A DNA stretch of 52,212 bases from a virus. Its lineage: Duplodnaviria; Caudoviricetes. Both the position numbers and the translations under genes were made by a program. The stretch is taken from the IMG/VR virus record IMGVR_UViG_3300049830_000248, positions 1-52,212 of that record. The stretch is one strand, 5' to 3'. The stretch's first letter is position 1; each line of letters starts with the position of its first letter. A model generated the notes under the pieces. It was given only the letters and a program-made list of their open reading frames with translations, did not search any database and was not told the DNA's origin. Below are positions 1 to 52,212 of this stretch, one piece after another.

Positions 1-5
1 TGACG

Positions 6-176
6 ATGAATAAAAATCCCGCAGCCGTGGCGCTCGGCAAAATGAAAAGTGCGGCCAAGTCGAAAGCTGCCCGCGAGAACGGCAAGCTCGGCGGTCGCCC
101 GCGCAAACCAAAGCGTGTGGCTCGGAGTGCTAACGCCGCGCTCTGCGAAGTGGCGGACAAGACGCGACCGAATTAA
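6..176 (+). CDS. Small basic AT-hook-like protein (56 aa), last ORF of a cassette cut by the window start
   Basis: ATG at 6 gives MNKNPAAVALGKMKSAAKSKAARENGKLGGRPRKPK...; GRPRK motif; reads through the AAC of the attC at 128 and stops at TAA 174-176 in its loop. Not in the ORF track. Confidence 0.65.
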   Translation: MNKNPAAVALGKMKSAAKSKAARENGKLGGRPRKPKRVARSANAALCEVADKTRPN

Positions 177-220
177 CCGATGCCGTGGCCCGCCACTTTC
201 GCAGCAGCAAGTGGTTAGAG
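128..220 (-). other. attC site A1
   Basis: TGCTAAC(128-134)-5 nt-GCTCTGCGAAGTGGCGG ... CCGCCACTTTCGCAGCAGC-5 nt-GTTAGAG(214-220); two unpaired bases (T, C) in the right arm on the + strand. Confidence 0.85.
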
Positions 221-241
221 GCGAATAATCGTAATACAAAT

Positions 242-574
242 ATGAAAAATGCAATCGAATGGTTCAAAGAAAAAGGCTTTGACGCTAACTGGAATGGAAA
301 AATAAAGCTGAAGGACATCATCGCTCTGCAAAATGACGCTGCGAAATCCGCGCTGATGACGGCGCAAATGGTCGCGTCCGAAGTCATCCAAAAAGAGGCT
401 ACGAAGTATGCCGTCATCGGCGACCCGATACCCGGCCCACCGGCTGAAATGTCACTGTCAGGACTCCAATACAAAGTCACGAGTGCAATCGTGGCGATGG
501 CGGACAAACTGGAATACATACCTGAAGCCTCTAACGTAGAACTGAGCGACCGGCGCGAGAACAATCAACGATGA
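242..574 (+). CDS. Hypothetical cassette protein (110 aa; possible GTG start at 185)
   Basis: ATG after an A/T-rich leader; cassette ends GTTAGAGGC(214-222)/GCCTCTAAC(527-535) are perfect reverse complements. Confidence 0.7.
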   Translation: MKNAIEWFKEKGFDANWNGKIKLKDIIALQNDAAKSALMTAQMVASEVIQKEATKYAVIGDPIPGPPAEMSLSGLQYKVTSAIVAMADKLEYIPEASNVELSDRRENNQR

Positions 575-639
575 CCGCTACTCTACCAGCATCCGAATTG
601 CAGAGGCCCGCGCCGGTTCGCTCCAGTGATTTGTTAGCG
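529..639 (-). other. attC site A2
   Basis: CTCTAAC ... ACTGAGCGACCGGCGCG / CGCGCCGGTTCGCTCCAGT ... GTTAGCG; bulged T and C in the right arm. Confidence 0.85.
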
Positions 640-1380
640 CGTCCGGCCCGAATCGTTGCGCTGTCTGGCGGGAAGGACTCAACGGCGATGGCACTCGGAC
701 TCGCGGAGCGTGAACCAGACGAATACGAATACTGCATCACGCCGACCGGACGTGAACTGCCGGTGATGGTGGAACACTGGAAGCGCCTCGAATGTCTGCT
801 CGGCAAACCGCTCATCAAAGTGCCCGCGCCGACGCTGGTGGAACTCATCATCAAATACAAAACGCTCCCGAATCACCGGATGCGCTACTGCACGCGCCAA
901 GTGAAAATCGAGCCGTTCCAAATCTACGCGGCAGGCAAAGCTCCGGCGGTGTGCTATGTAGGAATCCGCGCCGACGAAGCGGACTCACGCGAAGGAACTG
1001 ACCACACGGGCATCGTCGGCGTGACGCAAGACTGCCCGCTCGTGCGATGGGGCTGGGACATAAACGACGTGAGGAACTACCTCCGCAAGCGCGGTGTGGA
1101 AGTGCCGGAGCGAACAGACTGTGACATGTGCTACCACCAGCAACTCGGCGAATGGTGGCGGCTGTGGCGCGACCACAAAGACCGCTGGCAGGAAATCGAG
1201 GCACTCGAAGCGTGGACAGGGCACACGCTGCGGAGCGAGCAACGCGACACCTGGCCGGCGAGCCTGAAAGAACTCGCCAAGAAATTTGAGGCTGGATACG
1301 TGCCGAAAGGAGCAGCGCAAACAAACCTCCGCCTCGACGTGTCCGAGCGGTCAACAATGTGCGCGTGGTGTGCTCGATGA
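571..1380 (+). CDS. Phosphoadenosine phosphosulfate (PAPS) reductase-family protein (cassette)
   Basis: PP-loop IVALSGGKDSTAM, RYCTRQVKIEP, VGIRADE, PLVRWGW, CDMC cysteine cluster. Confidence 0.85.
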   Translation: MTATLPASELQRPAPVRSSDLLARPARIVALSGGKDSTAMALGLAEREPDEYEYCITPTGRELPVMVEHWKRLECLLGKPLIKVPAPTLVELIIKYKTLPNHRMRYCTRQVKIEPFQIYAAGKAPAVCYVGIRADEADSREGTDHTGIVGVTQDCPLVRWGWDINDVRNYLRKRGVEVPERTDCDMCYHQQLGEWWRLWRDHKDRWQEIEALEAWTGHTLRSEQRDTWPASLKELAKKFEAGYVPKGAAQTNLRLDVSERSTMCAWCAR

Positions 1381-1402
1381 ACACGAGACGCAACATCCGG
1401 CG

Positions 1403-1525
1403 CGCTAACGCAAAGGCCAGCAACGGCGGGGGACAATGAACGATGAACGCAGAACCGATATTGGAATTGGAACAAGGTGACGAACGCACGGCGCACCCGC
1501 CGTTGGCTGCGCCGCTTGGTTCTGC
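1403..1525 (-). other. attC site A3
   Basis: CGCTAAC ... GGCCAGCAACGGCGGG / CCCGCCGTTGGCTGCGCC ... GTTCTGC; two bulges in the right arm. Confidence 0.85.
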
Positions 1526-1970
1526 ATCCCCGCGTGACAAGCACATCATGTCAGTAATGGGAAGCTCGAAAGACATGACGTGGCCGACACCGACGGAATG
1601 GTTCGACTACCTCGACCTCGAATTTGGCTTCACGCTCGATCCGTGCTGCGAACACGCGACGGCGAAATGCGCGAAGCACTACACGCCAGCCGAAGATGGA
1701 CTGGCGCAACCGTGGAAAGATGAACGTGTCTTTATGAATCCGCCGTATGGCCGCGAAATCGGCGCGTGGATGAAGAAGGCATACGAGGAAGCCCGCGACA
1801 ACGGCGCACTGGTGGTGTGCTTCGTGCCTGCTCGCGTGGATACAAACTGGTGGCATAGCTACGCTGCGAAAGCCACAGAAGTCCGCTATCCAAAAGGGCG
1901 CGTGAAAAACCCGGACGGCGTGGCATGGCCGTTCCCAATCGCGGTGATAATCTACCGCCCGCGACTGTGA
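1443..1970 (+). CDS. Phage DNA N6-adenine methyltransferase, Dam-like (cassette)
   Basis: WPTPTEWF...FTLDPCC, catalytic VFMNPPYG, VPARVDTNWW; cassette ends GTTCTGCATC/GATGCAGAAC are perfect complements. Confidence 0.9.
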   Translation: MNAEPILELEQGDERTAHPPLAAPLGSASPRDKHIMSVMGSSKDMTWPTPTEWFDYLDLEFGFTLDPCCEHATAKCAKHYTPAEDGLAQPWKDERVFMNPPYGREIGAWMKKAYEEARDNGALVVCFVPARVDTNWWHSYAAKATEVRYPKGRVKNPDGVAWPFPIAVIIYRPRL

Positions 1971-1971
1971 T

Positions 1972-2069
1972 GCAGAACGCTCGTGCTGACCTACCCCGCA
2001 TTGACGATGTGGCCCGCGAAAGCGGATGTGAGGGGAACAATAGGGGTTAGGTCCGGCACGTTGTTAGCA
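1972..2069 (-). other. attC site A4
   Basis: GCAGAAC ... TGCTGACCTACCCC / GGGGTTAGGTCCGGCA ... GTTAGCA; two extra bases in the right arm. Confidence 0.8.
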
Positions 2070-2083
2070 GGCGAATTTGAGAT

Positions 2084-2236
2084 ATGAAACAAAAACCGAA
2101 AAGCAAAAAGGCCGACTCTTTGAAGTGGGCAATCGGCCAGCTTGAAAAGATGGCGGCGGAAGAAACAGACCCAAAACTGAAAGCTCTCTGGCTGCGAAGT
2201 GCGGCTGCTGGCTACGAACGAAAGGCAAGGCAATGA
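2084..2236 (+). CDS. Small hypothetical protein (50 aa), first ORF of a two-gene cassette
   Basis: MKQKPKSKKADSLKWAIGQLEKMAAEE...; its TGA overlaps the next ATG (ATGA 2233-2236). Confidence 0.6.
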   Translation: MKQKPKSKKADSLKWAIGQLEKMAAEETDPKLKALWLRSAAAGYERKARQ

Positions 2237-2604
2237 CCGAAGAACTGAAATCAAACACTCCGAAAACGGACGCATACGACAAAGACAACTGGCGTGGCAA
2301 CTCCGCTGGCTGGCGCGAGCGATCAATCACCATCGAGGACGCTCTGGACTTCGCACGCAAGCAAGAATACTCGGCGGCGTGCGCCGAAAAGCTCCTGCTC
2401 GAAATCGGCCATGCGATAGCCGAACGGCTCGAAAAAATCCGCATAGACTCCGACAAAGAACCGCACCGCCGAAACGCAGAGTGCGACATCAAAACCGAAG
2501 ATATGCTGGATATGATAACGCGCAGCATCCACACCTATAAACTCACTCAATCCGACGACGTGGCCGAGCCTGCTAACGTGAAGTCCTGCGGTGGCGGGGA
2601 ATAA
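2233..2604 (+). CDS. Hypothetical cassette protein (123 aa)
   Basis: TPKTDA...DFARKQE phage-like motif; cassette ends GTTAGCAGGC/GCCTGCTAAC. Confidence 0.7.
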   Translation: MTEELKSNTPKTDAYDKDNWRGNSAGWRERSITIEDALDFARKQEYSAACAEKLLLEIGHAIAERLEKIRIDSDKEPHRRNAECDIKTEDMLDMITRSIHTYKLTQSDDVAEPANVKSCGGGE

Positions 2605-2691
2605 ATCTATGAGCGCAAAATCACCAGTTGAAATTGAGGCGAGCGGCGAGCGTAAAAAAATCACGCCATCCGCAGCGACGCTTGGTTCGGC
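2571..2691 (-). other. attC site A5
   Basis: TGCTAAC ... GTCCTGCGGTGGCG / CGCCATCCGCAGCGAC ... GTTCGGC; bulged T and C. Confidence 0.85.
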
Positions 2692-2700
2692 AGCTCCCAC
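2574..2700 (+). repeat. 127-bp exact repeat, internal copy (other copy 52086-52212)
   Basis: Direct comparison from TAACGTGAAGTCC to GCAGCTCCCAC. Confidence 0.95.
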
Positions 2701-2941
2701 GTTCTGCGCTGGCTGTGACTGGTGGAAACCGCGTAGAACGGCAGACGGCATGACCGGACTCGTCGGGTGGTGTGATGCCTTCAAGAAAACAACCAATGCG
2801 ACTCACGGTTCGCGCTGCACTGCGTGGACTCGCTGGCAAGAGCCGCCGAACGATGAAGCCAGCGAACCCGGAACTATGACTCACGACAACCCAAAACCCG
2901 AAGCGGCGAACCCAAGGCGTAATCCGGGTTCGCTGCGCTGA
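2609..2941 (+). CDS. Cys-rich hypothetical cassette protein (110 aa)
   Basis: Starts in the attC A5 loop; CAGC...WC...C pattern; ends inside attC A6. Confidence 0.65.
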   Translation: MSAKSPVEIEASGERKKITPSAATLGSAAPTFCAGCDWWKPRRTADGMTGLVGWCDAFKKTTNATHGSRCTAWTRWQEPPNDEASEPGTMTHDNPKPEAANPRRNPGSLR

Positions 2942-2951
2942 CTGGTTAAGC
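2845..2951 (-). other. attC site A6
   Basis: GCCGAAC ... AGCCAGCGAACCCGGA / TCCGGGTTCGCTGCGCT ... GTTAAGC; bulged C in the right arm. Confidence 0.85.
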
Positions 2952-2972
2952 ATCCCGAACAACAACACAAAT

Positions 2973-3155
2973 ATGAAACTGAAAAAAATAATGATACTGG
3001 AACTGACCGAACTCGAAACCGATGCAATCAAAACGCTCATCGGCAGAACGTCCGAGAAGGCGCGACTCGACCTCGGCCTGACTCTCGCTCAATCCAACAC
3101 TGTGTCTGACATCTACGACCACCTTCCGAATCTGGATGATGGCAAGGATGCTTAA
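2973..3155 (+). CDS. Hypothetical protein (60 aa), attI-proximal cassette
   Basis: Cassette ends GTTAAGCATCC(2945-2955)/GGATGCTTAAC(3146-3156), 11 bp perfect. Confidence 0.7.
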   Translation: MKLKKIMILELTELETDAIKTLIGRTSEKARLDLGLTLAQSNTVSDIYDHLPNLDDGKDA

Positions 3156-3182
3156 CAATCATTAACAAACTTCTGTTCGTAT
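3150..3182 (-). other. Putative attI site
   Basis: The last cassette end is followed by a non-hairpin A/T-rich 26 bp with TTAACAA repeated at 3152 and 3162, directly before the intI start. Confidence 0.6.
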
Positions 3183-4151
3183 ATGAGAATTGAAACCGCC
3201 TTGGAAACATTAAGGGATGTGATTCGCAGGAAACATTTCTCTTTGGCTACGGAACGGAGTTATCTCATGTGGGTGTCACGTTATGCGAGATTTGTTTCTG
3301 ACCTTGCCCGCAGGAATTGCCCGCAGGGATTGCCCGCCCAAAAGTTAGAGGCGTTTCTTACACAACTCGCCCGTCAGGACGTTTCAGCCTCAACTCAAAA
3401 TCAGGCGTTCAATGCGCTAATCTTTTTTTACCGCGAAGTCGTCAAGGTCGAGGTTGGAAACGTAAATGCGTTGCGCGCCAAGAAGCCTGTGCAATTGAGA
3501 TTCGCGCCCGAATTTTCAGAGGTAAAAAAACTGCTCGAATCAGTTCAGGACATTGGAGGCTATCCTACCCGCCTGATTGTGAAATTAATTTACGGTTGCG
3601 GCCTGCGCGTTTCCGAGCCGCTGAATCTTCGCGTGAAGGACGTTTTGCTGGAAGATTCCAAGCTGGTGATTTGCGGAGCGAAGGGCGGAAAAGATCGGTT
3701 TATTTCAATCCCCTGCTCGCTGGCTGGAGAACTGAAAACGCAACTGGCTTTTGCAAAATCGGTTCAGGCGCAAGACCGCACCAATTTGGTTCCAGTTGCT
3801 TTGCCTGGATTGCTGGCGAAGAAATACCCGCATTGGCAGTTCTCTCCGAAATGGGCGTTTTTGTTTCCTGCCCGGACGACTTGCCAACATCCGCGCGAAG
3901 GATTTAATGTCCGATGGCGTTGCCACGAGGCGAATGTTCAGCGGGCGGTTCGGGCAGCGGCGCGGCCTTTGGGTCTGGACATCACGCCGCACCACCTACG
4001 CCACGCCTACGCGACCCACTGTTTGAACAGTGGGCACAATCCGCGAGCGATTCAACAGGCGATGGGTCACAGCCAGCTAGAGACAACGATGGGCTACCTC
4101 CATGCCGAAGCCATGAGCGTTAAATCACCTTTGGAATTTCAAACTCACTAA
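3183..4151 (+). CDS. intI: Integron integrase (IntI-type tyrosine recombinase)
   Basis: IRRKHFSLATERSYLMWV, VSASTQNQAFNALIFFY, YGCGLRVSE, KGGKDR, IntI-specific insertion ALPGLLAKKYP...WAFLFP...HEANVQRAV, HHLRHAYATH, MGHSQLETTMGY; catalytic R-K-H-R-H-Y all present. Confidence 0.92.
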   Translation: MRIETALETLRDVIRRKHFSLATERSYLMWVSRYARFVSDLARRNCPQGLPAQKLEAFLTQLARQDVSASTQNQAFNALIFFYREVVKVEVGNVNALRAKKPVQLRFAPEFSEVKKLLESVQDIGGYPTRLIVKLIYGCGLRVSEPLNLRVKDVLLEDSKLVICGAKGGKDRFISIPCSLAGELKTQLAFAKSVQAQDRTNLVPVALPGLLAKKYPHWQFSPKWAFLFPARTTCQHPREGFNVRWRCHEANVQRAVRAAARPLGLDITPHHLRHAYATHCLNSGHNPRAIQQAMGHSQLETTMGYLHAEAMSVKSPLEFQTH

Positions 4152-4155
4152 AACC

Positions 4156-5241
4156 ATGTTCAAAAACGCAAAAATCTTCTCCATCGGCGCGAATCCAGAA
4201 GAATACCACAGCCAGCCAGCCGAGCGCGGTCAATCCAACTATGTGATGTCGTCATCCGCGCTGCGGATGTTCGCGCTCTGTCCGTCGAAGTGGCGGAATG
4301 GATGGGAGCTTCCGCGCTCCGCGTCCCTCGAATACGGGAGCTTGTTTGATACGCTCATGCTGACGCCGGAGCAGTTTGACACGCGTTACGCGTTGATTCC
4401 AGCCACTTACGATTCGGCGGCGATGAAGTGTCCGAAGTGCGGCTCGGTGTCCGAGGCTGCATCCTGCCGCGCCTGCAAGACCGAGCGCGAGCCGACGACG
4501 ATTCAAAAGCCGTGGAACGGTAATTCGGACACCTGCCGGGCGTGGCTGGACGCGCAGAAGGCCACTGGACGCGAGGTAGTGTCCGCTGACGCCCTGGGGG
4601 ACGCGCAGAGCGCGGCAAAGAGGCTTCTGGCCGACGACCAGCTTAAACGGTTCATCGAAGCCTGTGACAAGCAGGTTTGGCTGACTGCTGACTGGCACGA
4701 CGAAAACACCGGCATCATCGTGCCGGTCAAATGCCTTCTGGACTTGGCGGGAAAGGCAGACAGCGCGTTTGCGAAATCCCTTGGTGATCTGAAAACCACG
4801 AAGAACGCCGCTCCTTTGGCGTGGGCGAAGTGGGCGCATTACGCTGGTTACGAGATTCAGGCCGCTTGGAACACCGACATATTTGTAGCCGCATCGCAGC
4901 GCGAGATTACGAACTTTTGCTTTGTTCTGTCCGAAAGCGAATTCCCTTTTGAAACTGGCCGGCGCTTCATGTCACAAGACCTTCTTGAGCCGGGGATGGA
5001 CACGGGCGACATCGCATCGGGGCGGCGGCAATACCTTGGGATGCTCAAAGGGTATTGCAAATGTGTCAAAAACAACTTCTGGCCGGGATTTGACGACACT
5101 GACGAGGCGAGCGCGGACGGTTGGACGCTGGTTTTACCCGAACCTTACGCAGAACAACGCCGGATGTTCGCTCCGAAATTCAATTATGAGACGGGCGACA
5201 CGGAGGAGGCGGAAGAATCCGACCCAGATTTAATCCCTTAA
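4156..5241 (+). CDS. RecE/exonuclease VIII-like PD-(D/E)XK exonuclease with zinc-ribbon insert
   Basis: EEYH...SSSALR, GSLFDTLML, KCLLD, DLKTT, YEIQAA; CPKC...CRAC insert. Confidence 0.8.
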   Translation: MFKNAKIFSIGANPEEYHSQPAERGQSNYVMSSSALRMFALCPSKWRNGWELPRSASLEYGSLFDTLMLTPEQFDTRYALIPATYDSAAMKCPKCGSVSEAASCRACKTEREPTTIQKPWNGNSDTCRAWLDAQKATGREVVSADALGDAQSAAKRLLADDQLKRFIEACDKQVWLTADWHDENTGIIVPVKCLLDLAGKADSAFAKSLGDLKTTKNAAPLAWAKWAHYAGYEIQAAWNTDIFVAASQREITNFCFVLSESEFPFETGRRFMSQDLLEPGMDTGDIASGRRQYLGMLKGYCKCVKNNFWPGFDDTDEASADGWTLVLPEPYAEQRRMFAPKFNYETGDTEEAEESDPDLIP

Positions 5242-5400
5242 TTCCTGACCTGCCAGCCTGACCGTCTCGCGCATGGCCTCAAACCACTCTTTAGGCGTTC
5301 GGACGCGGGAAACGGGCGTTGGCGAGCGGCGCGGAGCCTTCTGACGCGGTTCGGGCTGGTCGTCATCCAGCCACCAGAACCGTTTATTTCCTGATTTCAT
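5230..5400 (-). CDS. Small hypothetical protein (56 aa)
   Basis: ATG at 5400, MKSGNKRFWWLDD...; last gene of a leftward operon. Confidence 0.5.
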   Translation of the reverse strand: MKSGNKRFWWLDDDQPEPRQKAPRRSPTPVSRVRTPKEWFEAMRETVRLAGQELRD

Positions 5401-5411
5401 AATTTTATGGG

Positions 5412-5651
5412 TTAAGGTTTGGGTAATAGGTAGATGGTCTTGCCACACTCGCAGGCCAACGGCTTTCCGAACGCCTGTTGCCAAAGAAGCGTCTGTTGGT
5501 ATGGCATCACCGAAACCTTCTGGCCGCTCCGGTCGTGGCCGGTGTATTTCGCGCACGAACCAGCGCACTCCACGCAGAGCAGCGCGCCGTTGTCGCCGGA
5601 GTAGATGACGCCTGCTTTCAACACTGGCGTCGTATGGTCGAGCGGTCTCAC
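5412..5651 (-). CDS. Zn-binding hypothetical protein (79 aa)
   Basis: CVEC...CECG; the GTG start overlaps the stop of a 31-aa ORF (5743-5648). Confidence 0.55.
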   Translation of the reverse strand: MRPLDHTTPVLKAGVIYSGDNGALLCVECAGSCAKYTGHDRSGQKVSVMPYQQTLLWQQAFGKPLACECGKTIYLLPKP

Positions 5652-5748
5652 GATTGCACCGCCTTTCCTTCGGTAAACATGACGGAATAATTGACCCATC
5701 CAAGCGCGCTTACGCCTTTGTATTGTCGAGTTTCAGTTTTCATTTTTG

Positions 5749-6048
5749 TTAGTCGTTGGAGTGCCGGTCGGCACGTTCAGTTTCTTCGATGCTGCTCGGC
5801 GACGGAGCGGAGATAGCTTCCGCGTTCTCCCTGCCCACAGTTTCCGATGGGCTAGTTCGCTGTTCCGCCGCCGAGAAGATTTTCGGAGTGTGATTTCGGA
5901 CATAGATGCCGAGCGCGTCAGGGTAGTAGCACCCGTCGCGGTCACACTTGTTGATTAGCTCTTTCATCAGGTCGGGCAGCCAGCAGGCCGGAGCTTCTAC
6001 GATCTGCCGCTGTAGTTCTTCGATTGTTATTTTCATATTTATTTTCAT
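5749..6048 (-). CDS. Hypothetical protein in an ectopic gene cassette
   Basis: Bounded by GTTGGAGTG(5755) and CACTCCAAC(6063-6071) plus an attC. Confidence 0.65.
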   Translation of the reverse strand: MKINMKITIEELQRQIVEAPACWLPDLMKELINKCDRDGCYYPDALGIYVRNHTPKIFSAAEQRTSPSETVGRENAEAISAPSPSSIEETERADRHSND

Positions 6049-6064
6049 ATTTATTTTCCGGTCA

Positions 6065-6158
6065 CTCCAACCAATCGCCGAAGCGAAAGTGGCGGGCGAT
6101 GGCCATTGGTTAATCCGAACGTCTCCCGTCCGCCACTTCGCTTGGCTCGGCGTTGATC
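6065..6158 (+). other. Orphan attC site homologous to A1, opposite orientation
   Basis: CTCCAAC ... GCCGAAGCGAAAGTGGCGG / CCGCCACTTCGCTTGGC ... GTTGATC; closely resembles the reverse complement of 128-220. Confidence 0.8.
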
Positions 6159-6430
6159 TTGAGCGTGTCGAGGTTGCGCCAAGCCGTCTTGCCGTTGCGC
6201 TCGTTCTTCACCAGCGCGCGGGCAACCCCATACGCAAGCTTGAAATCCGTAATGGTTACGAGGGTTTCCTCAACCGCGCCAGCATACAGCAGGGCGGTTG
6301 AGCCGATGAGTTTCTGCGATTCGATTGTGGTCATAAGTCGCCCACCGCGAATCTGGTCGTTGATGTGGTTCGCAATCAACTCGGCGTTTGGCCCGATGAT
6401 CTCTATATTGCTTCCAAGTATCGTTTTCAT
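6110..6430 (-). CDS. Hypothetical protein (106 aa)
   Basis: First gene after a leftward promoter; C-terminus encoded by the attC arm. Confidence 0.65.
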   Translation of the reverse strand: MKTILGSNIEIIGPNAELIANHINDQIRGGRLMTTIESQKLIGSTALLYAGAVEETLVTITDFKLAYGVARALVKNERNGKTAWRNLDTLKINAEPSEVADGRRSD

Positions 6431-6478
6431 ATCAATTCCATTGGTTAATTGTTGATTCCAGTTTTGCCTAGCACCGAT

Positions 6479-6507
6479 AAACTACCATTGTGCCGAATAG
6501 GTGTCAA
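6479..6507 (-). promoter_or_regulatory. Sigma70-like leftward promoter
   Basis: TTGACA-17 bp-TAGTTT on the - strand. Confidence 0.6.
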
Positions 6508-6572
6508 CGTCTATTTCATCTTTTCTTTATCCCCTTGACTTTTCCAGCCGCTACGCCGATTTTCCCGCTGAT

Positions 6573-6965
6573 ATGCCGCTATTTACCGTTGAAAACGCCG
6601 CCGAACTTGGACGCAAAGGAGCTATTCGCCGCAAGGAGCTAATCGAGCAGCGGAAGGCCGAAGCCAAGCAAGCCGAATTTGAACGCGCCACACCGGAGCC
6701 AGAAGCGGCGATTGAGCGGACTAAACGGCAACTGTCGAAGGTGGATGACATGATAGATGCCGCACTGGAGGAGGATGACGCCGACCTGTTTTTACGCCTC
6801 TCTGCCGCCAAAGAGCGCCTCTGGAAGCTGGTTTCCCCGACCGCTGGCGTCCTGAAACAGCCTCGTGGTCGTCAAGATCGGCTCCGGCCTGCAATCGCGC
6901 CGATGTCCGAGCAGCAGCCAGCGACACCACAAGCGGAAACTTCGATTTCTGCCAACGCCTCTTGA
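6573..6965 (+). CDS. Hypothetical helical protein, possible terminase small subunit
   Basis: MPLFTVENAAELGRKG then a coiled coil, followed by a long non-coding G-rich region; the TerS call is inference only. Confidence 0.45.
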   Translation: MPLFTVENAAELGRKGAIRRKELIEQRKAEAKQAEFERATPEPEAAIERTKRQLSKVDDMIDAALEEDDADLFLRLSAAKERLWKLVSPTAGVLKQPRGRQDRLRPAIAPMSEQQPATPQAETSISANAS

Positions 6966-7519
6966 TTTGCCAATGTTTTTGTGCGTGTTTTGAATTGCCA
7001 AAAGCGCCTCACGAAACCAGCATGAACATTGATTGAATAATTATAGACACACAATAGTCCTTGTGTTCACTTGTGTTTTCTTGTGGTGTCCAAGACCAGG
7101 AACTTTTGATGGAGGCAAGGAATCTCTTTGGCTGGCCGAGGGGGTGGGACGGGTGACGGGGGGAGGGGGAATCACAGCGACGATGGCGCGGCGTGACTCC
7201 CCCTTTTCACACGAGGAATAAAAATGGAAGGGATTGTAGAAAGGAGGATGAATCTTTTGTGGACATAGTTCGCCCCTAAATGGAAGGGAAGCCGCTGTTG
7301 TTCGGAGAGCTTCCGCAGCGGGTGTCACCGGCCCTTTGCTCACAAGACGCTGGTGCGCCTTTGGGGAGGGACGAATGTTAATGCGGAGAGTTCGGGTGCG
7401 GGGCGATTTCGGGATGTGAAAAGCCGGTGCAAAGACTGGCAGATCGTTCCTATTGTTGAGCGGGCAACAACACCACGATGAGGCGGGTATCCGAGCCTGG
7501 CGGATGCAACCGAGGACGC

Positions 7520-7556
7520 AAAAAACCCGTGCCATCTTTGAGGGATGACACGGGTT
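7520..7556 (-). terminator. Rho-independent terminator-like hairpin
   Basis: AACCCGTGCCATC / GATGACACGGGTT stem with an A6 tract (U-tract on the - strand). Confidence 0.55.
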
Positions 7557-7894
7557 ACAATGTTCCGCCAGTTCTGCCAACGCCCTGAAAAGGACGCCGG
7601 CATATTCTTAAAGTTGGTGGCTGGTGGAACCGACATTGTGATGAACTAATCGCATAGGCAGGAGAAAAAGTAAAACAGTTCTTGCACGCAGGTTGCGTGG
7701 TGTGGTAGAAATGGGTGTCAGCGCGAGTTGACCCGGTTGGAAGCCGGAAAAAAAGAGTGCAGGCTAATGAAAACAACCACCAACGAAAATTCTGTGCGTC
7801 ATCTGGCGCAATCGGTAAACCTTCACGGTCGCAAGGCCGGGCTGCGCTCGCCGCTTCCAACGTCGGGTGACGCACAGAGGATTTGGAGGCAGGT

Positions 7895-8170
7895 ATGAGC
7901 GAAAAATCAGGCACGGATAAAATGTCGGCTCACTGGCCGCCGTCGTATCGCGGAAGAATCCCCGTCAAGGTGCGTATGGCCTGCGTGAGTCGAAAACACA
8001 TTCATTGGAAAATCAAGCAGTCCATTTGGGCATCGCCGTGTGCTTCGTGTGGTTCTGGCACTAATGTTCAGATAGACCACATAATTCCAGTTTCAAAGGG
8101 TGGAACAAGCACGCAAGAAAATCTTCAACCTTTGTGCGGAATTTGTAATGGAAGAAAGGGGAACAAGTGA
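7895..8170 (+). CDS. HNH endonuclease
   Basis: CASC...IDHIIPVSKGG...NLQPLCGICNGRKG. Confidence 0.88.
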   Translation: MSEKSGTDKMSAHWPPSYRGRIPVKVRMACVSRKHIHWKIKQSIWASPCASCGSGTNVQIDHIIPVSKGGTSTQENLQPLCGICNGRKGNK

Positions 8171-8844
8171 ATAAACCACCAGCCTTTCAGTTCTACGCCG
8201 ACGACTTCCTTGCCGGAACCGTCACCATGTCGAACGAAGAACGTGGTCTGTTCATCACCCTGCTTTGTCGCCAATGGTCACAAGGGTTTGTTACAAAATC
8301 GGAGATTGAAAGGATTAGCAAAGGTATGGCTGTGCCATCGATTACCCATGTCACAGCCAAGTTCAAGCCATCAGGAAAAGACCAGTTTCAGAACGAAAGA
8401 TTGGAGTTGGAGCGTAAAAAACAGGAAGAATACCGAAAAAACCGCTCAAATTCAGGAAAAATAGGTGCTTTATCAAGATGGCACAGCCATAGCACAGCCA
8501 TAGCACAGCCTATGGCAAACGATGGCTCTCCGTCTCCGTCTCCGTCTCCGTCTTCAGAAGAAGAGAGAGAGAGTGGCGCACACACTCACTTTCCTGAAGC
8601 TCAAATCCCGTCATGGTCTGAATTCTGGACATACTGCCAGTCTCAAGCCTGCCTTCTCCCAGCGGAATGGTATGCCCGCGACAAGTTCGAGGCAGCGGAG
8701 TCTGACCATTGGAAGGGAAAAGGCAACTGGCGGGCGTATGCCCGGCGGTGCAAAGGCTGGTGGGAATCAGACGGCAGACCAATGCAGCCCAAGAAAAAGG
8801 TTGGAAAAATAGATGCCAGCGCACCAGTGGGAGGGCGTTTCTAA
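8167..8844 (+). CDS. YdaU/DUF1376-like replication initiator
   Basis: KPPAFQFYADDFL...EERGLFITLLC..W, NERLELER, SPSPSPS linker; directly upstream of the helicase. Confidence 0.75.
   Translation: MNKPPAFQFYADDFLAGTVTMSNEERGLFITLLCRQWSQGFVTKSEIERISKGMAVPSITHVTAKFKPSGKDQFQNERLELERKKQEEYRKNRSNSGKIGALSRWHSHSTAIAQPMANDGSPSPSPSPSSEEERESGAHTHFPEAQIPSWSEFWTYCQSQACLLPAEWYARDKFEAAESDHWKGKGNWRAYARRCKGWWESDGRPMQPKKKVGKIDASAPVGGRF
8481..8513 (+). repeat. Three 11-bp direct repeats, probable replication iterons
   Basis: GCACAGCCATA x2 plus GCACAGCCTAT inside the initiator linker, as in lambda O-type origins. Confidence 0.55.
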
Positions 8845-10115
8845 TGGACAAACTGCCGCCATACGCGCCGGAGGCTGAGAAGTGCATCATCGGGTCATGC
8901 CTGATTGATCCGAAGATTCGCCTTCCAGAATGTCAAATGGTCATTACCAACTCGGAATTCTTCTACCAATTCCAGTGTCAAATTGTTTGGGATACCATCA
9001 ACGCAATGAGTCTGGAAACAGTGAACTTTGTCAGCGTCATCCAAAAGCTGCGGGACGGGACGCCCGAACAGAAATCGGTCACGCTGGAATTTATGTCGGA
9101 ATGTCAGGACATGGTGACGAGCGCAGCCAACCTTCCGACGTGGCTTGAGGAGGTCGAAAAAAAGTTCATCGCGCGCAAGGTGATTTCGGTCTGCACCCGT
9201 GCGGTGGCGTCCATGTATGAGGGTGGGGACGTGATGGCGATGCTGGACGGCATTGAATCATCCGTGCTGGGAATCAGGCCGGCGGAACGGAATACGAAAG
9301 ACATCAAATCACTCATGCGCGAAGCAACCGGACTGATTGAACAGCGTTCGCAGAATTGGGACTTGGTGCTTGGACATGAAACAGGGTTTTCCGATCTTGA
9401 CCGAAAGACTGACGGCATCCACGGCGGCGAGTTCATCGTCATCGGCGCACCTACGAGTTGCGGCAAGACCGCGCTCGCGCTTAACATCATCGTTCACAAC
9501 GCGCTTAATGGCGTTCCGTCCGGTATCTTGTCGGCTGAAATGCTGCCGGTGAAGCTGGCTCTGCGCTCGCTCTGCGCTGAATCGCGCGTTAACTTCAAAC
9601 GCATCGCCGAAACGGACGTTTCAAAGATGATTGCCAACATCGGGCGCATTGCAAATTCACCCATTCACATGGACACCATCAACGGCTTCACCATCGGCCA
9701 GGTGCGGGCGCTCGCGCGCCGGATGAAGCAGTTGCACAGAATCAAGATTCTGGCGATTGAGAACATCCAGCTATTGCAGGGCAAAGGCGACACGCGCGAG
9801 CAGCAGATTTCTGACATCAGCCGGGGCATGAAAGGCATCGCGCTTGAATTGGACATTGCCGTGCTTGGATTATCTCAATTGAACGACGATAACCGCCTGC
9901 GCGAGTCACGCGCCATTGGGCATGATGCGGATTCGGTTTGGATCATCGAGAACGACGGCCCGTGGCAACCAGCCATCCAGCCGGTAAAGCTGAATGTGGA
10001 GAAATGCCGGGACGGGGAGACAGGAATAGTGCCGCTGATGTTTTTTAAGGAACATACACGGTTTGAACAACCGTCGAAGATTGCAGATGACGACGTGCCA
10101 AACGGAGAAGATTGA
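8844..10115 (+). CDS. dnaB: DnaB-like replicative helicase (423 aa)
   Basis: LPPYAPEAEKCIIGS, TGFSDLDRKTDG, GAPTSCGKT, SAEM, LSQLN, LRES...DAD, KCRDGETG; TAATG coupling. Confidence 0.9.
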   Translation: MDKLPPYAPEAEKCIIGSCLIDPKIRLPECQMVITNSEFFYQFQCQIVWDTINAMSLETVNFVSVIQKLRDGTPEQKSVTLEFMSECQDMVTSAANLPTWLEEVEKKFIARKVISVCTRAVASMYEGGDVMAMLDGIESSVLGIRPAERNTKDIKSLMREATGLIEQRSQNWDLVLGHETGFSDLDRKTDGIHGGEFIVIGAPTSCGKTALALNIIVHNALNGVPSGILSAEMLPVKLALRSLCAESRVNFKRIAETDVSKMIANIGRIANSPIHMDTINGFTIGQVRALARRMKQLHRIKILAIENIQLLQGKGDTREQQISDISRGMKGIALELDIAVLGLSQLNDDNRLRESRAIGHDADSVWIIENDGPWQPAIQPVKLNVEKCRDGETGIVPLMFFKEHTRFEQPSKIADDDVPNGED

Positions 10116-50673: not shown

Positions 50674-50898
50674 ATGCCACCTACACCGATGAACGAACCT
50701 ATCTGCATAAAATGCAAAACACCAATGTCGCCAGTCCCGAAGCAAACGGGCATCTTGGCAAACGCGACATTCACAGTCACGGGCTTCCGGTGCGAAAACT
50801 GCGGTCACTGGAATAATCTCAAACGCAGAAAACAGAAGCAGCCCAACACCAAGCTCACAGATGCCGGGACTGTGAGCGTGAAATTGGATGAGACGTAA
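50674..50898 (+). CDS. Zinc-ribbon cassette protein
   Basis: CIKC...FRCENCG; stop lies in the B3 loop. Confidence 0.65.
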   Translation: MPPTPMNEPICIKCKTPMSPVPKQTGILANATFTVTGFRCENCGHWNNLKRRKQKQPNTKLTDAGTVSVKLDET

Positions 50899-50929
50899 TC
50901 CCGGCATTCTGTGCAGCTTTTCGTTAGCG
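50841..50929 (-). other. attC site B3
   Basis: GCCCAAC ... GCTCACAGATGCCGGGA / TCCCGGCATTCTGTGCAGC ... GTTAGCG. Confidence 0.85.
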
Positions 50930-50959
50930 TGTCGCGCCAAAGAATCTCGAAAAAAAATG

Positions 50960-50993
50960 TTGCGTAGCATGGTAGAAAGATGTAGCATGGTAG
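50960..50993 (+). promoter_or_regulatory. Cassette-internal promoter overlapped by 12-bp direct repeats
   Basis: TTGCGT-17-TAGCAT with TG extension; GTAGCATGGTAG at 50964 and 50982. Confidence 0.55.
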
Positions 50994-50997
50994 GACT

Positions 50998-51285
50998 ATG
51001 ACAAAATTCTGTTACAAGAAACTATCGGAAAACGAACTGCACGAAATGGCGTTACTGCTATCTCGTGCGATTCACAACGAACAGGTCGGCATCGAAACTG
51101 AAAGCCCGGACGGTAAAAATCCCGGCTTCATCACGAAACAGCTATTCGGTGTGTGTGACGGCATGGAAGATACTACCATCCTCATCCAGCCCGAAGGCTT
51201 GAAGTGGCTGTGGGTGCGATATATGGGTGCGAAAGGCGGAAAAGCCAAGGCCGCGAAAACAAAGAAGCGTGACCGCGCACGCTAA
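50998..51285 (+). CDS. Hypothetical cassette protein with basic KGG-like tail (95 aa)
   Basis: MGAKGGKAKAAKTKKR; its stop is the TAA of the TAAC box. Confidence 0.7.
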   Translation: MTKFCYKKLSENELHEMALLLSRAIHNEQVGIETESPDGKNPGFITKQLFGVCDGMEDTTILIQPEGLKWLWVRYMGAKGGKAKAAKTKKRDRAR

Positions 51286-51380
51286 CGACAAGCTCACGCC
51301 ATGACTACCGCGCCAACAGCGTCCGCCTCGCCGAAAACCGTCAACGCGGTAGTCATTGAGCGTGCAGCGACTGGTTCGCC
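51280..51380 (-). other. attC site B4
   Basis: CGCTAAC ... GCTCACGCCATGACTACCGCG / CGCGGTAGTCATTGAGCGTGCAGC ... GTTCGCC. Confidence 0.85.
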
Positions 51381-51711
51381 ATTTCGGGTGCGACTCTCTC
51401 GCAAGCGCGGATGGAGGATGCCGGAAAATACTGTGGTCGTGTCGAAGCCGAGCGTGTGGGGAAATCCATTCTGGAAAGGTTTCGGCTGCCGGATGAGCGC
51501 GGCCTGGAGCTATCGCGTCCACCTGCAAGTGGCGCTCGTGCAAATACGCCTCGGCCTGCCATGCGATGAACCACACTTCGAGCGCATCGCAAAACGGCTG
51601 CCCGAACTGCGCGGGAAGAATCTCGCCTGCTGGTGTCCACTCGATATGCCGGACTGCTACTGCCACGCGGGCGTGCTGCTAGAAATGGCGAACGAAAAGC
51701 TGACCGCATGA
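51301..51711 (+). CDS. DUF4326-family protein (cassette)
   Basis: SRKRGWRMPENTVVVSKPSVWGNPF ... LRGKNLACWC...CHAGVLLEMAN. Confidence 0.85.
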   Translation: MTTAPTASASPKTVNAVVIERAATGSPFRVRLSRKRGWRMPENTVVVSKPSVWGNPFWKGFGCRMSAAWSYRVHLQVALVQIRLGLPCDEPHFERIAKRLPELRGKNLACWCPLDMPDCYCHAGVLLEMANEKLTA

Positions 51712-51786
51712 CTACCGCGCCAACAACGCCTCGCCTCGCCGAAAACCGTGAACGCGGTAGTCATTGCGTGCAGTGCTGGGTTATGC
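51687..51786 (-). other. attC site B5
   Basis: GGCGAAC ... CGCATGACTACCGCG / CGCGGTAGTCATTGCG ... GTTATGC; near copy of B4. Confidence 0.8.
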
Positions 51787-51806
51787 CACGTTAACGAAAA
51801 ATCAAT

Positions 51807-52088
51807 ATGAAAACCGGAGAAAAAGTAGTCTGCGTAAAAGGCTGGTCAATGCCGTAAGCCAACGATGCAAGTCACAAGCCAATCGTCGGAAATGTGTATG
51901 TGGTAGCCGGTGTCCATGAGTGCTACGAGACGATGGGAGGTCTGCATCTGCTCGGAATAGAAGTGCCGCACCACTGCTGCCGATGCGGTGGCGCTGCGGC
52001 GTGGAGATCCTACCACTTCCGAAAGCTGGATGAAATGAAACTCGAAGCAAAACAAAACCAACAACAGCCACAGACGCAAGTGGCATAA
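51807..52088 (+). pseudogene. Cassette gene with in-frame TAA at 51855-51857
   Basis: MKTGEKVVCVKGWSMP*ANDASHKPIVGNVYVV... continues in frame to 52088; ends GTTATGCCAC/GTGGCATAAC. Confidence 0.65.
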
Positions 52089-52203
52089 CGTGAAGTCCTG
52101 CGGTGGCGGGGAATAAATCTATGAGCGCAAAATCACCAGTTGAAATTGAGGCGAGCGGCGAGCGTAAAAAAATCACGCCATCCGCAGCGACGCTTGGTTC
52201 GGC
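52083..52203 (-). other. attC site B6 (second copy of A5 with a different neighbour)
   Basis: Identical to A5 from TAAC onward; the left flank is GTGGCA instead of GCCTGC. Confidence 0.85.
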
Positions 52204-52212
52204 AGCTCCCAC
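52086..52212 (+). repeat. 127-bp exact repeat, terminal copy
   Basis: Identical to 2574-2700. Confidence 0.95.

Follow-up and report, generated by a model that had tools for sequence, protein, structure and literature searches.

An integron-type cassette likely placed by an IntI-like recombinase at a secondary site in the 3' end of a phage gene

Insertion of integron cassettes at secondary sites has been observed experimentally in E. coli and was deduced from isolated cassettes ('SALINs') in bacterial genomes (Loot et al., bioRxiv 10.1101/2022.09.11.507474). The off-site (attG) insertions mapped experimentally share the consensus 5'-GWT-3' (bioRxiv 10.1101/2022.09.11.507474). In classical integrons, an attC site is defined as an imperfect hairpin of 57-141 nt with the inverse core 5'-RYYYAAC and the core GTTRRRY-3'; in the bottom strand, which is the one recombined, the sequence is 5'-RYYYAA^C...GTTRRRY-3' and the extrahelical bases are found on the L'' (3') arm (PMC5027507). 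For phages, a survey of 10,705 genomes reported three complete integrons, all of them described as captured bacterial pieces, namely a Vibrio chromosomal integron, a class 1 integron on P1, and an integron in a Shewanella prophage (Qi et al. 2023, PMC9892861). According to these sources, both secondary-site (attG) insertion and integrons on phage genomes are already known. Our literature search returned this one phage-integron survey (PMC9892861) and, in the accessible text of the sources, no report of a family of viral integrons whose cassettes are coded on the bottom strand.

Here, we describe a locus in a viral record of 52,212 nt, which consists of one contig and was analysed as a whole; this complete stretch is called the window below. 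Positions 2574-2700 are identical to its last 127 nt (52086-52212), the identity beginning at a TAAC box, and the record resembles a circle of 49,512 nt to which an alternative cassette segment of 2.57 kb has been joined. That the genome is a phage or phage-like element rests on several points, which are the source collection of its relatives, the apparent 49.5-kb circle, and the gene content (a DnaB-like helicase, an ExoVIII-type nuclease, and weak terminase and tail matches). We regard it as likely that the segment 5756-6152 is an integron-type cassette, which the genome's own IntI-like recombinase put into a non-att (attG-like) site within the last two codons of a target gene. The features are compiled in Table 1.

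Table 1. Positions of the lone cassette, its target, and the integron components in the window
Feature	Positions	Strand	Basis or remark
Target gene, small phage protein family	6110..6430	-	homologues start at M33 (ATG 6334)
Next small ORF of the leftward operon, 31 aa	5648..5743	-	ATG 5 nt past the shared TAA
Lone cassette (397 nt)	5756..6152	-	AA^C crossover rule, 9-nt box partner, upstream frame restored
Far-end box CCGGCACTCCAA^C	5755..5767	-	cassette's own 5' R-type box; complements GTTGGAGTGACCGG at 6071-6058
Cassette ORF, 99 aa	5749..6048	-	ORF table; second in-frame ATG at 6036
Structured tail module, three-way junction	5795..5876	-	fold; DNA alignment with L003; invariant peptide (P0003-P0006)
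attC-type hairpin, 94 nt	6065..6158	-	folds, scan match, likeness to A1
IntI-like integron integrase	3183..4151	+	TIGR02249 and VchIntIA matches
attI-like site ATGCTTAA^C AATCATTAACAAACTTCTGTTCGTAT	3148..3182	+	immediately 5' of the intI ATG; last box partner of the array
Array attC 'A1'	128..220	+	heads sibling cassette 134-534

The integrase was aligned with TIGR02249 over positions 2-313 of 315 and scored 256.2 bits, which is 9 bits below the cut-off of 265; its best match outside the integron-integrase models was an archaeal XerA model with 136 bits. The match to VchIntIA (PDB 2A3V; E 8e-44) covers the IntI-specific insert as well as the catalytic tail, and the alignment is gapless across VALPGLLAKKYPHWQFSPKWAFLFPA / VWLPTALKEKYPNAPYEFRWHYLFPS and on through HHLRH...GH...Y. 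The attI-like site was assigned by a motif kept upstream of intI in relatives and by the junctions 531>3153 and 3152>131, which occur in contigs of public runs and place cassette insertion at 3155^3156.

For the detection of attC sites, we scanned the window for an AAC, paired arms, and a GTT, and tested the result against 30 first-order Markov simulations. (A MAFFT alignment of 11 attC sites misplaced the 5' arms; our own scan and the simulations were used, and no covariance model.) The scan found eight sites, compared to a simulated mean of 0.13 (maximum 1; n=30). Seven of them lie in one block, which begins at 50841 and, crossing the circle junction, reaches 2951; the site studied here is the sole other one. 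For the 9-nt 3' box of each array attC, an exact inverted match is present at a distance of 305-874 nt downstream; for five of the seven sites, this partner is the 5' box of another scanned attC. This chain of boxes terminates at ATGCTTAAC (3148-3156), 27 nt 5' of the intI start codon, and the genes of the array and intI seem to be strung together in one direction. The array cargo (50841-52089 and 128-3156) is of a phage-type accessory kind and includes PAPS_reduct (571-1380), a Dam N6-adenine methyltransferase (1443-1970), and DUF4326 (51301-51711). In several array cassettes the start codon is located within the attC loop, and the R box gives the preceding array ORF its TAA stop or an in-frame Asn codon.

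Compared with classical integrons (PMC5027507), the system has in common the family-specific insert of IntI, an attI-like site abutting intI, the AA^C crossover, AAC/GTT hairpins in which the recombined strand has an extrahelical T in its 3' arm, and the relative geometry of array, attI, and intI. In contrast to them, the cassette ORFs are encoded on the bottom strand and co-directional with intI, so that attC precedes the ORF; moreover, attC holds the start codon in several cassettes, many ORFs lack a stop of their own, the cargo is of the phage type, and the integrase stays below the NCBIfam cut-off.

On the minus strand, the lone hairpin reads 5'-GATCAA^C, arm, loop, arm, GTTGGAG-3' (plus-strand bounds CTCCAAC and GTTGATC). 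The fold of this strand has a z value of -3.85, and in the MFE structure one unpaired T in the 3' arm is followed by a 6-bp stem. As is the case for the L'' arm of an attC site, the 3' arm is the longer one, exceeding the 5' arm by 2 nt; due to the unpaired T and these two extra nucleotides, the minus strand resembles an attC bottom strand. The strand of the recombining type is thus the minus strand at the lone site and the plus strand at A1. The length of 94 nt is within the range of known attC sites; AAC and GTT are exact and the outer consensus positions imperfect. The native boxes of the site are (A)CTCCAAC and GTTGGAG, whereas the integrated 5' box is GATCAAC. Unpaired stretches are GCCA in the 5' arm and GATTG in the 3' arm, offset by a 5-bp GCCGA/TCGGC helix; this layout differs from the textbook symmetric unpaired spacer of about 5-6 nt per arm. 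Rather than a promoterless top-strand ORF followed by its attC, we found an ORF that is bottom-strand-like and lies downstream of attC. At the gathering score, Rfam gave no match for the attC or for the tail module described below; Rfam has no attC model. A match of the hairpin to mir-5904 at a permissive threshold (E 0.28) was taken as chance.

The sequence-only reading had noted an attC akin to A1 in reversed orientation. The alignment bears this out: 65 of 87 aligned positions (75%) are identical, with the two sites on opposite strands. If the leader and the first codons are included, A1 and the lone site share 92 of 135 aligned positions, and the bodies that follow differ. The sibling cassette 134-534 consists of the A1 attC and a 110-aa ORF.

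The extent of the cassette follows from its boxes. The attC box GTTGGAGTG (6071-6063) has its exact complement in CACTCCAAC (5763-5755) at a spacing of 397 nt; an exact 9-nt partner of the lone attC exists on the minus-strand side only. Therefore, the cassette runs from C6152 to A5756 on the minus strand, with attC first and the ORF on the bottom strand; the order is attC, leader, ORF, tail module, and ...CTCCAA. For any GTT 9-mer, the chance of an exact inverted partner within 1.6 kb is about 1%. Comparing CCGGCACTCCAAC (5767-5755) with GTTGGAGTGACCGG (6071-6058), the agreement is 9/9 for the exact part and 13/14 if extended. The same correspondence appears in the paired boxes GTTGGAGTGCCGG (5755-5767) and CCGGTCACTCCAAC (6058-6071), for which there are 13 complementary positions and one extra T; they had been proposed as the bounds of the ORF 6048-5749 and were recovered at these positions. 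C5755 of the far-end box is derived from the target, and upon circularisation the start of the linear cassette completes its own attC. At 397 nt, the lone cassette compares with 401 nt for the sibling cassette. The statement that there is no hairpin at the 5755 side holds in so far as no AAC/GTT-bounded attC occurs there; the side is nevertheless structured, as a 5-bp hairpin (5761-5774) and the three-way junction 5795-5876 are present.

At the attC-side junction, the AAC at 6154-6152 constitutes codon N93 of the target gene. If 5756-6152 is removed, the minus strand reads ATC AAC GAC TAA, followed by 5 nt and the ATG at 5743; the predicted restoration of an upstream gene ending in ...LKIND-stop ahead of the next ATG was confirmed on the sequence. 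Likewise, the rule that attC heads the ORF and that AAC is read as Asn applies, as attC precedes the ORF and the junction AAC is N93 of the upstream gene. In the present window, residues 94-106 of the target gene (AEPSEVADGRRSD) form a 13-residue tail, which is terminated by a TAA within the attC loop. A1 yields a parallel tail, AALCEVADKTRPN, in the same frame.

Whether this tail is native was judged by means of homologues, which were collected by running HMMER over the full set of 1.84 billion representative proteins. The five homologues comprise 56-66 aa, and all five start at M33 of the window protein. All five end 2-5 residues past an invariant TLK[ILM], i.e. at the junction, and none has the NAEPSEVADGRRSD tail; two more distant viral relatives likewise end soon past the TLK motif. 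Homologues always carrying the NAEPSEVADGRRSD end as a native one had been named beforehand as the outcome that would speak against an insertion, and the opposite was found: the tail is absent from all five and each stops at the junction. Hence, the AEPSEVADGRRSD of the window stems from reading on into the attC arm. The first 32 codons of the ORF 6430-6110 (6335-6430) have no counterpart in any of the five homologues. The true start of the target gene is probably the ATG at 6334, to judge by its sequence relatives; with a start at this position, a leader of about 100-170 nt would follow the divergent intergenic region 6431-6500. On the other side of the cassette, the ORF 5648-5743 is joined by a GTGA overlap to the following gene, which extends to 5412.

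The target triplet is G^TT (top strand GTCG^TTGAT), which fits the consensus 5'-GWT-3' of attG insertions. The target has no hairpin and lacks the conserved attI motifs AAKGATTA and CTGTTCG; it shares TAACAAA with the attI-like site of the window. Taken together, the cassette boundaries, the closure of the site upon removal, and the target triplet support an off-site event of the IntI type.

These data also bear on the proposal that the ORF is a native gene of the operon, that its hairpin has a regulatory or structural role, and that the likeness to A1 arose from homologous exchange of 'head modules' and not from IntI. The leader and first codons common to A1 and the lone site would allow modules to move by homology, and an excision product is missing from the run contigs. 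However, homology exchange does not predict an exact complementary box at a distance of 397 nt, nor a family-typical C-terminus that is precisely restored at AA^C; furthermore, the minus strand has no T-run of the terminator type behind the hairpin. We consider this proposal very improbable.

The cassette ORF does not contain a stop codon; it continues across the end box (…RHSN) and borrows the GAC TAA of the target. Neither its product nor the target-gene protein could be assigned to a Pfam, NCBIfam, or PHROG family, and the ESM Atlas gave no usable match for these two small proteins. A single-sequence AF2 model of the ORF product (pLDDT 52.6) contains three helices in residues 9-53 and disorder in residues 54-99; in this prediction the cargo appears as a small helical protein whose tail is disordered. 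At the head of the ORF, a 12-nt tandem duplication (AAAATAAATATG twice on the minus strand, within 6023-6057) creates two in-frame ATGs; the same interval was flagged as a repeat when contigs were mapped to the window.

The tail module lies within the 3' part of the ORF, where it is read through as disordered peptide, and is common to cassettes with unrelated bodies. The only database relatives of the cassette ORF share just the C-terminal TSPSETVGRENAEAISAP[SP]P, which is combined with at least three unrelated N-terminal bodies. At the DNA level the module is conserved with L003 (3860-3945), where one hairpin is altered by paired changes that keep the stem and replace the encoded peptide; with two DNA copies to compare, these paired changes are suggestive. 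A check of the module by eye showed no hammerhead core motifs. Given that attC, leader, and first codons are shared with A1, that the tail is shared elsewhere, and that the bodies differ, cassettes here seem to be assembled from exchangeable head and tail modules around a variable cargo.

In order to follow the cassettes in populations, contigs of four public runs were mapped to positions 1-9000; X1 is possibly the source sample, and X2-X4 come from two other studies. In X1, a joint 531>3153 has a depth of 69.8, compared to about 175 on the main path; in X3, a contig joins 2995-3152 to 131-412. Both junctions lie within the shared TAAC and put the cassette 134-534 exactly at the TAA^C of the attI-like site. 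The position of this cassette is thus polymorphic, both within run X1 and in the run of another study (X3). Loose ends occur at 130/135 and at 2574, with several different partners each; for 2574, the run contigs contain both left partners, and a third one is found in X4. As the run contigs show 134-534 at the attI-like site, the AA^C crossover happens in these populations, and cassettes built like the lone one are moved by it. A loose end of an X3 contig at 5795 was not accepted as a junction, because it comprises just 8 letters, and these match the opposite arm of the same hairpin.

With regard to the lone cassette itself, a single X1 contig (3153-7161; depth even at 157) spans the filled site and differs from the window at 0 positions. 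This contig is relevant for the suspicion that the assembler stitched a cassette of the polymorphic array into the leftward operon. Such a chimera would be in line with a polymorphic array and with a record that is itself a composite of tail and circle (2574-2700 equalling 52086-52212). Yet a second assembly, that of run X1, which is possibly the source sample and hence not independent, spans the site in the single contig mentioned; none of the loose ends listed is located at 5755/6153, the junctions share AAC alone, which is too short to mislead a k-mer assembler, and both reading frames are preserved. A chimera is therefore extremely improbable.

The sequence-only reading had further proposed to look for the empty junction in reads and relatives. 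This search gave no empty site: joints skipping 5756-6152 were absent from all four runs among the contig pieces listed (69 further pieces lie outside this listing; contigs drop rare variants, and X2-X4 are 3-8x deep), and an 18-mer of the empty junction had 0 matches in viral contigs. Two scans of metagenome contigs, with alignments of the target gene and of the cassette ORF, respectively, led to 0 confirmed loci, and the single locus from the genome contigs (L060) proved to be a spurious 21-residue match inside an ABC-transporter region. In summary, neither an empty-site allele nor an excised circle was seen in the four runs, in the viral, metagenome, and genome contig collections, or in relatives. 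A tblastn search with eight neighbouring proteins against 59 loci found the leftward operon in none of them (0/59), so that the ancestral state is deduced from protein ends only. We infer integration from the anatomy of the locus, the ends of the homologues, and the behaviour of the sibling cassette, with no empty or excised form found.

Relatives of the integrase, with 35-76% identity, are encoded by 55 IMG/VR contigs (L005-L059). In these, the 30 nt between an AAC and the intI ATG carry the conserved AAC-AAKGATTA-...-CTGTTCG, and the DNA left of this AAC varies from locus to locus; a conserved motif to the right of AAC and variable DNA to its left give the site its attI-like appearance. The hairpin scan found 77 sites upstream of intI versus 7 downstream, and most relatives have the array upstream. 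The direction of ORFs was scored by a crude measure of ORF coverage in the 44 relatives with enough flank: upstream of intI, ORFs are mostly co-directional in 31, opposite in 1, and ambiguous in 12. The flanking genes of the relatives are not shared with the window, which places the module in different backbones.

Cassettes outside the array, located downstream of intI, occur in L009 (7608-7907) and, with the same sequence, in L010 and L011. They sit at second attI-like sites and not inside genes. The second attI-like sequences (L009 7600-7960; L011 4480-5110, same in L010) are orphans, as no integrase gene follows. The stretch 4480-5110 of L011 is a mini-array of two cassettes, one of which encodes a lipoprotein-like ORF. 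In L023, L033, and L035, the scan also hit hairpins downstream of intI; these lack a box partner and were not taken as cassettes.

In view of these relatives, the lone cassette could be the remnant of a second attI-type platform or of a small second array, having entered an orphan attI-like site that has since decayed; the TAACAAA shared by the target and the attI-like site of the window is compatible with this origin. Against it, the target has neither AAKGATTA nor CTGTTCG, and it is situated within the conserved end of a coding gene, where the homologues stop. We judge such a platform quite improbable. For the generalisation that IntI seeds cassettes into other operons, the outcome is mixed: this insertion is supported, whereas the plural rests on n = 1, given that the extra cassettes of the relatives occupy attI-like sites. 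True gene-internal use of a secondary site is represented by this single case.

For an off-site insertion by IntI, the following course would account for the observed arrangement. An excised circular cassette would fold its ORF-bearing strand into the attC hairpin, with CCGGCACTCCAAC and GTTGGAGTGACCGG as native R boxes. IntI would then cut between A and C of AA^C and exchange this strand with 5'-ATCAA^CGAC-3' of the double-stranded target (top GTCG^TTGAT); replication would resolve the junction. In the sequence, attC bears the hybrid 5' box GATCAAC and the original box is left 397 nt away. The target gene has traded its final Asp and stop for the 13-residue tail encoded by attC, with termination in the attC loop. 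The cassette ORF, in turn, is co-oriented with the leftward operon and has taken over the old stop and the old 5-nt spacing to the next gene; owing to this orientation and inheritance, it could be expressed by read-through and cause little polar damage.

Like the attG and SALIN cassettes (bioRxiv 10.1101/2022.09.11.507474), the present one is a single attC-bearing cassette outside attI with a crossover in G^(A/T)T; its expression would rely on a neighbouring promoter, and insertion at a gene end is tolerated. Sigma-70-like promoters were not detected in a scan of 5200-6700. The differences are as follows: the genome is phage-like and not a bacterial chromosome; the definition of SALINs requires that no integrase is nearby, whereas here one is present in cis, at 1.6 kb from the intI end to the near end of the cassette (5756) and at 1.9 kb to the attC hairpin; the ORF resides on the attC bottom strand, and both junction AACs are in-frame Asn codons. 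Unlike the mapped attG events, this is a natural case, deduced from sequence. With the integrons of Qi et al. 2023 (PMC9892861) the locus shares intI, attC, and cassettes on a phage genome. In contrast to those in the main text of that survey, the integrase family is represented here in 55 viral contigs and has its own conserved attI-like motif.

On balance, we lean towards the broader view that phages or phage-like elements of one widespread lineage have a native integron of their own, which is active and reversed and is characterised by bottom-strand cassettes with attC first, exchangeable modules, shuffling in populations, and occasional off-site insertion at gene ends. In such a reversed integron, attC would often supply the leader or start codon, and the crossover AAC would often be a codon or part of a TAA. 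The case described here is a natural off-site insertion whose junctions are defined to the base pair; it is located on a viral genome that carries the recombinase, the array, and the attI-like site in cis, and both reading frames appear to have suffered little. The lone cassette suggests a route by which phages may spread accessory genes through their own operons and, together with the relatives, points to a whole viral integron family with reversed coding logic.
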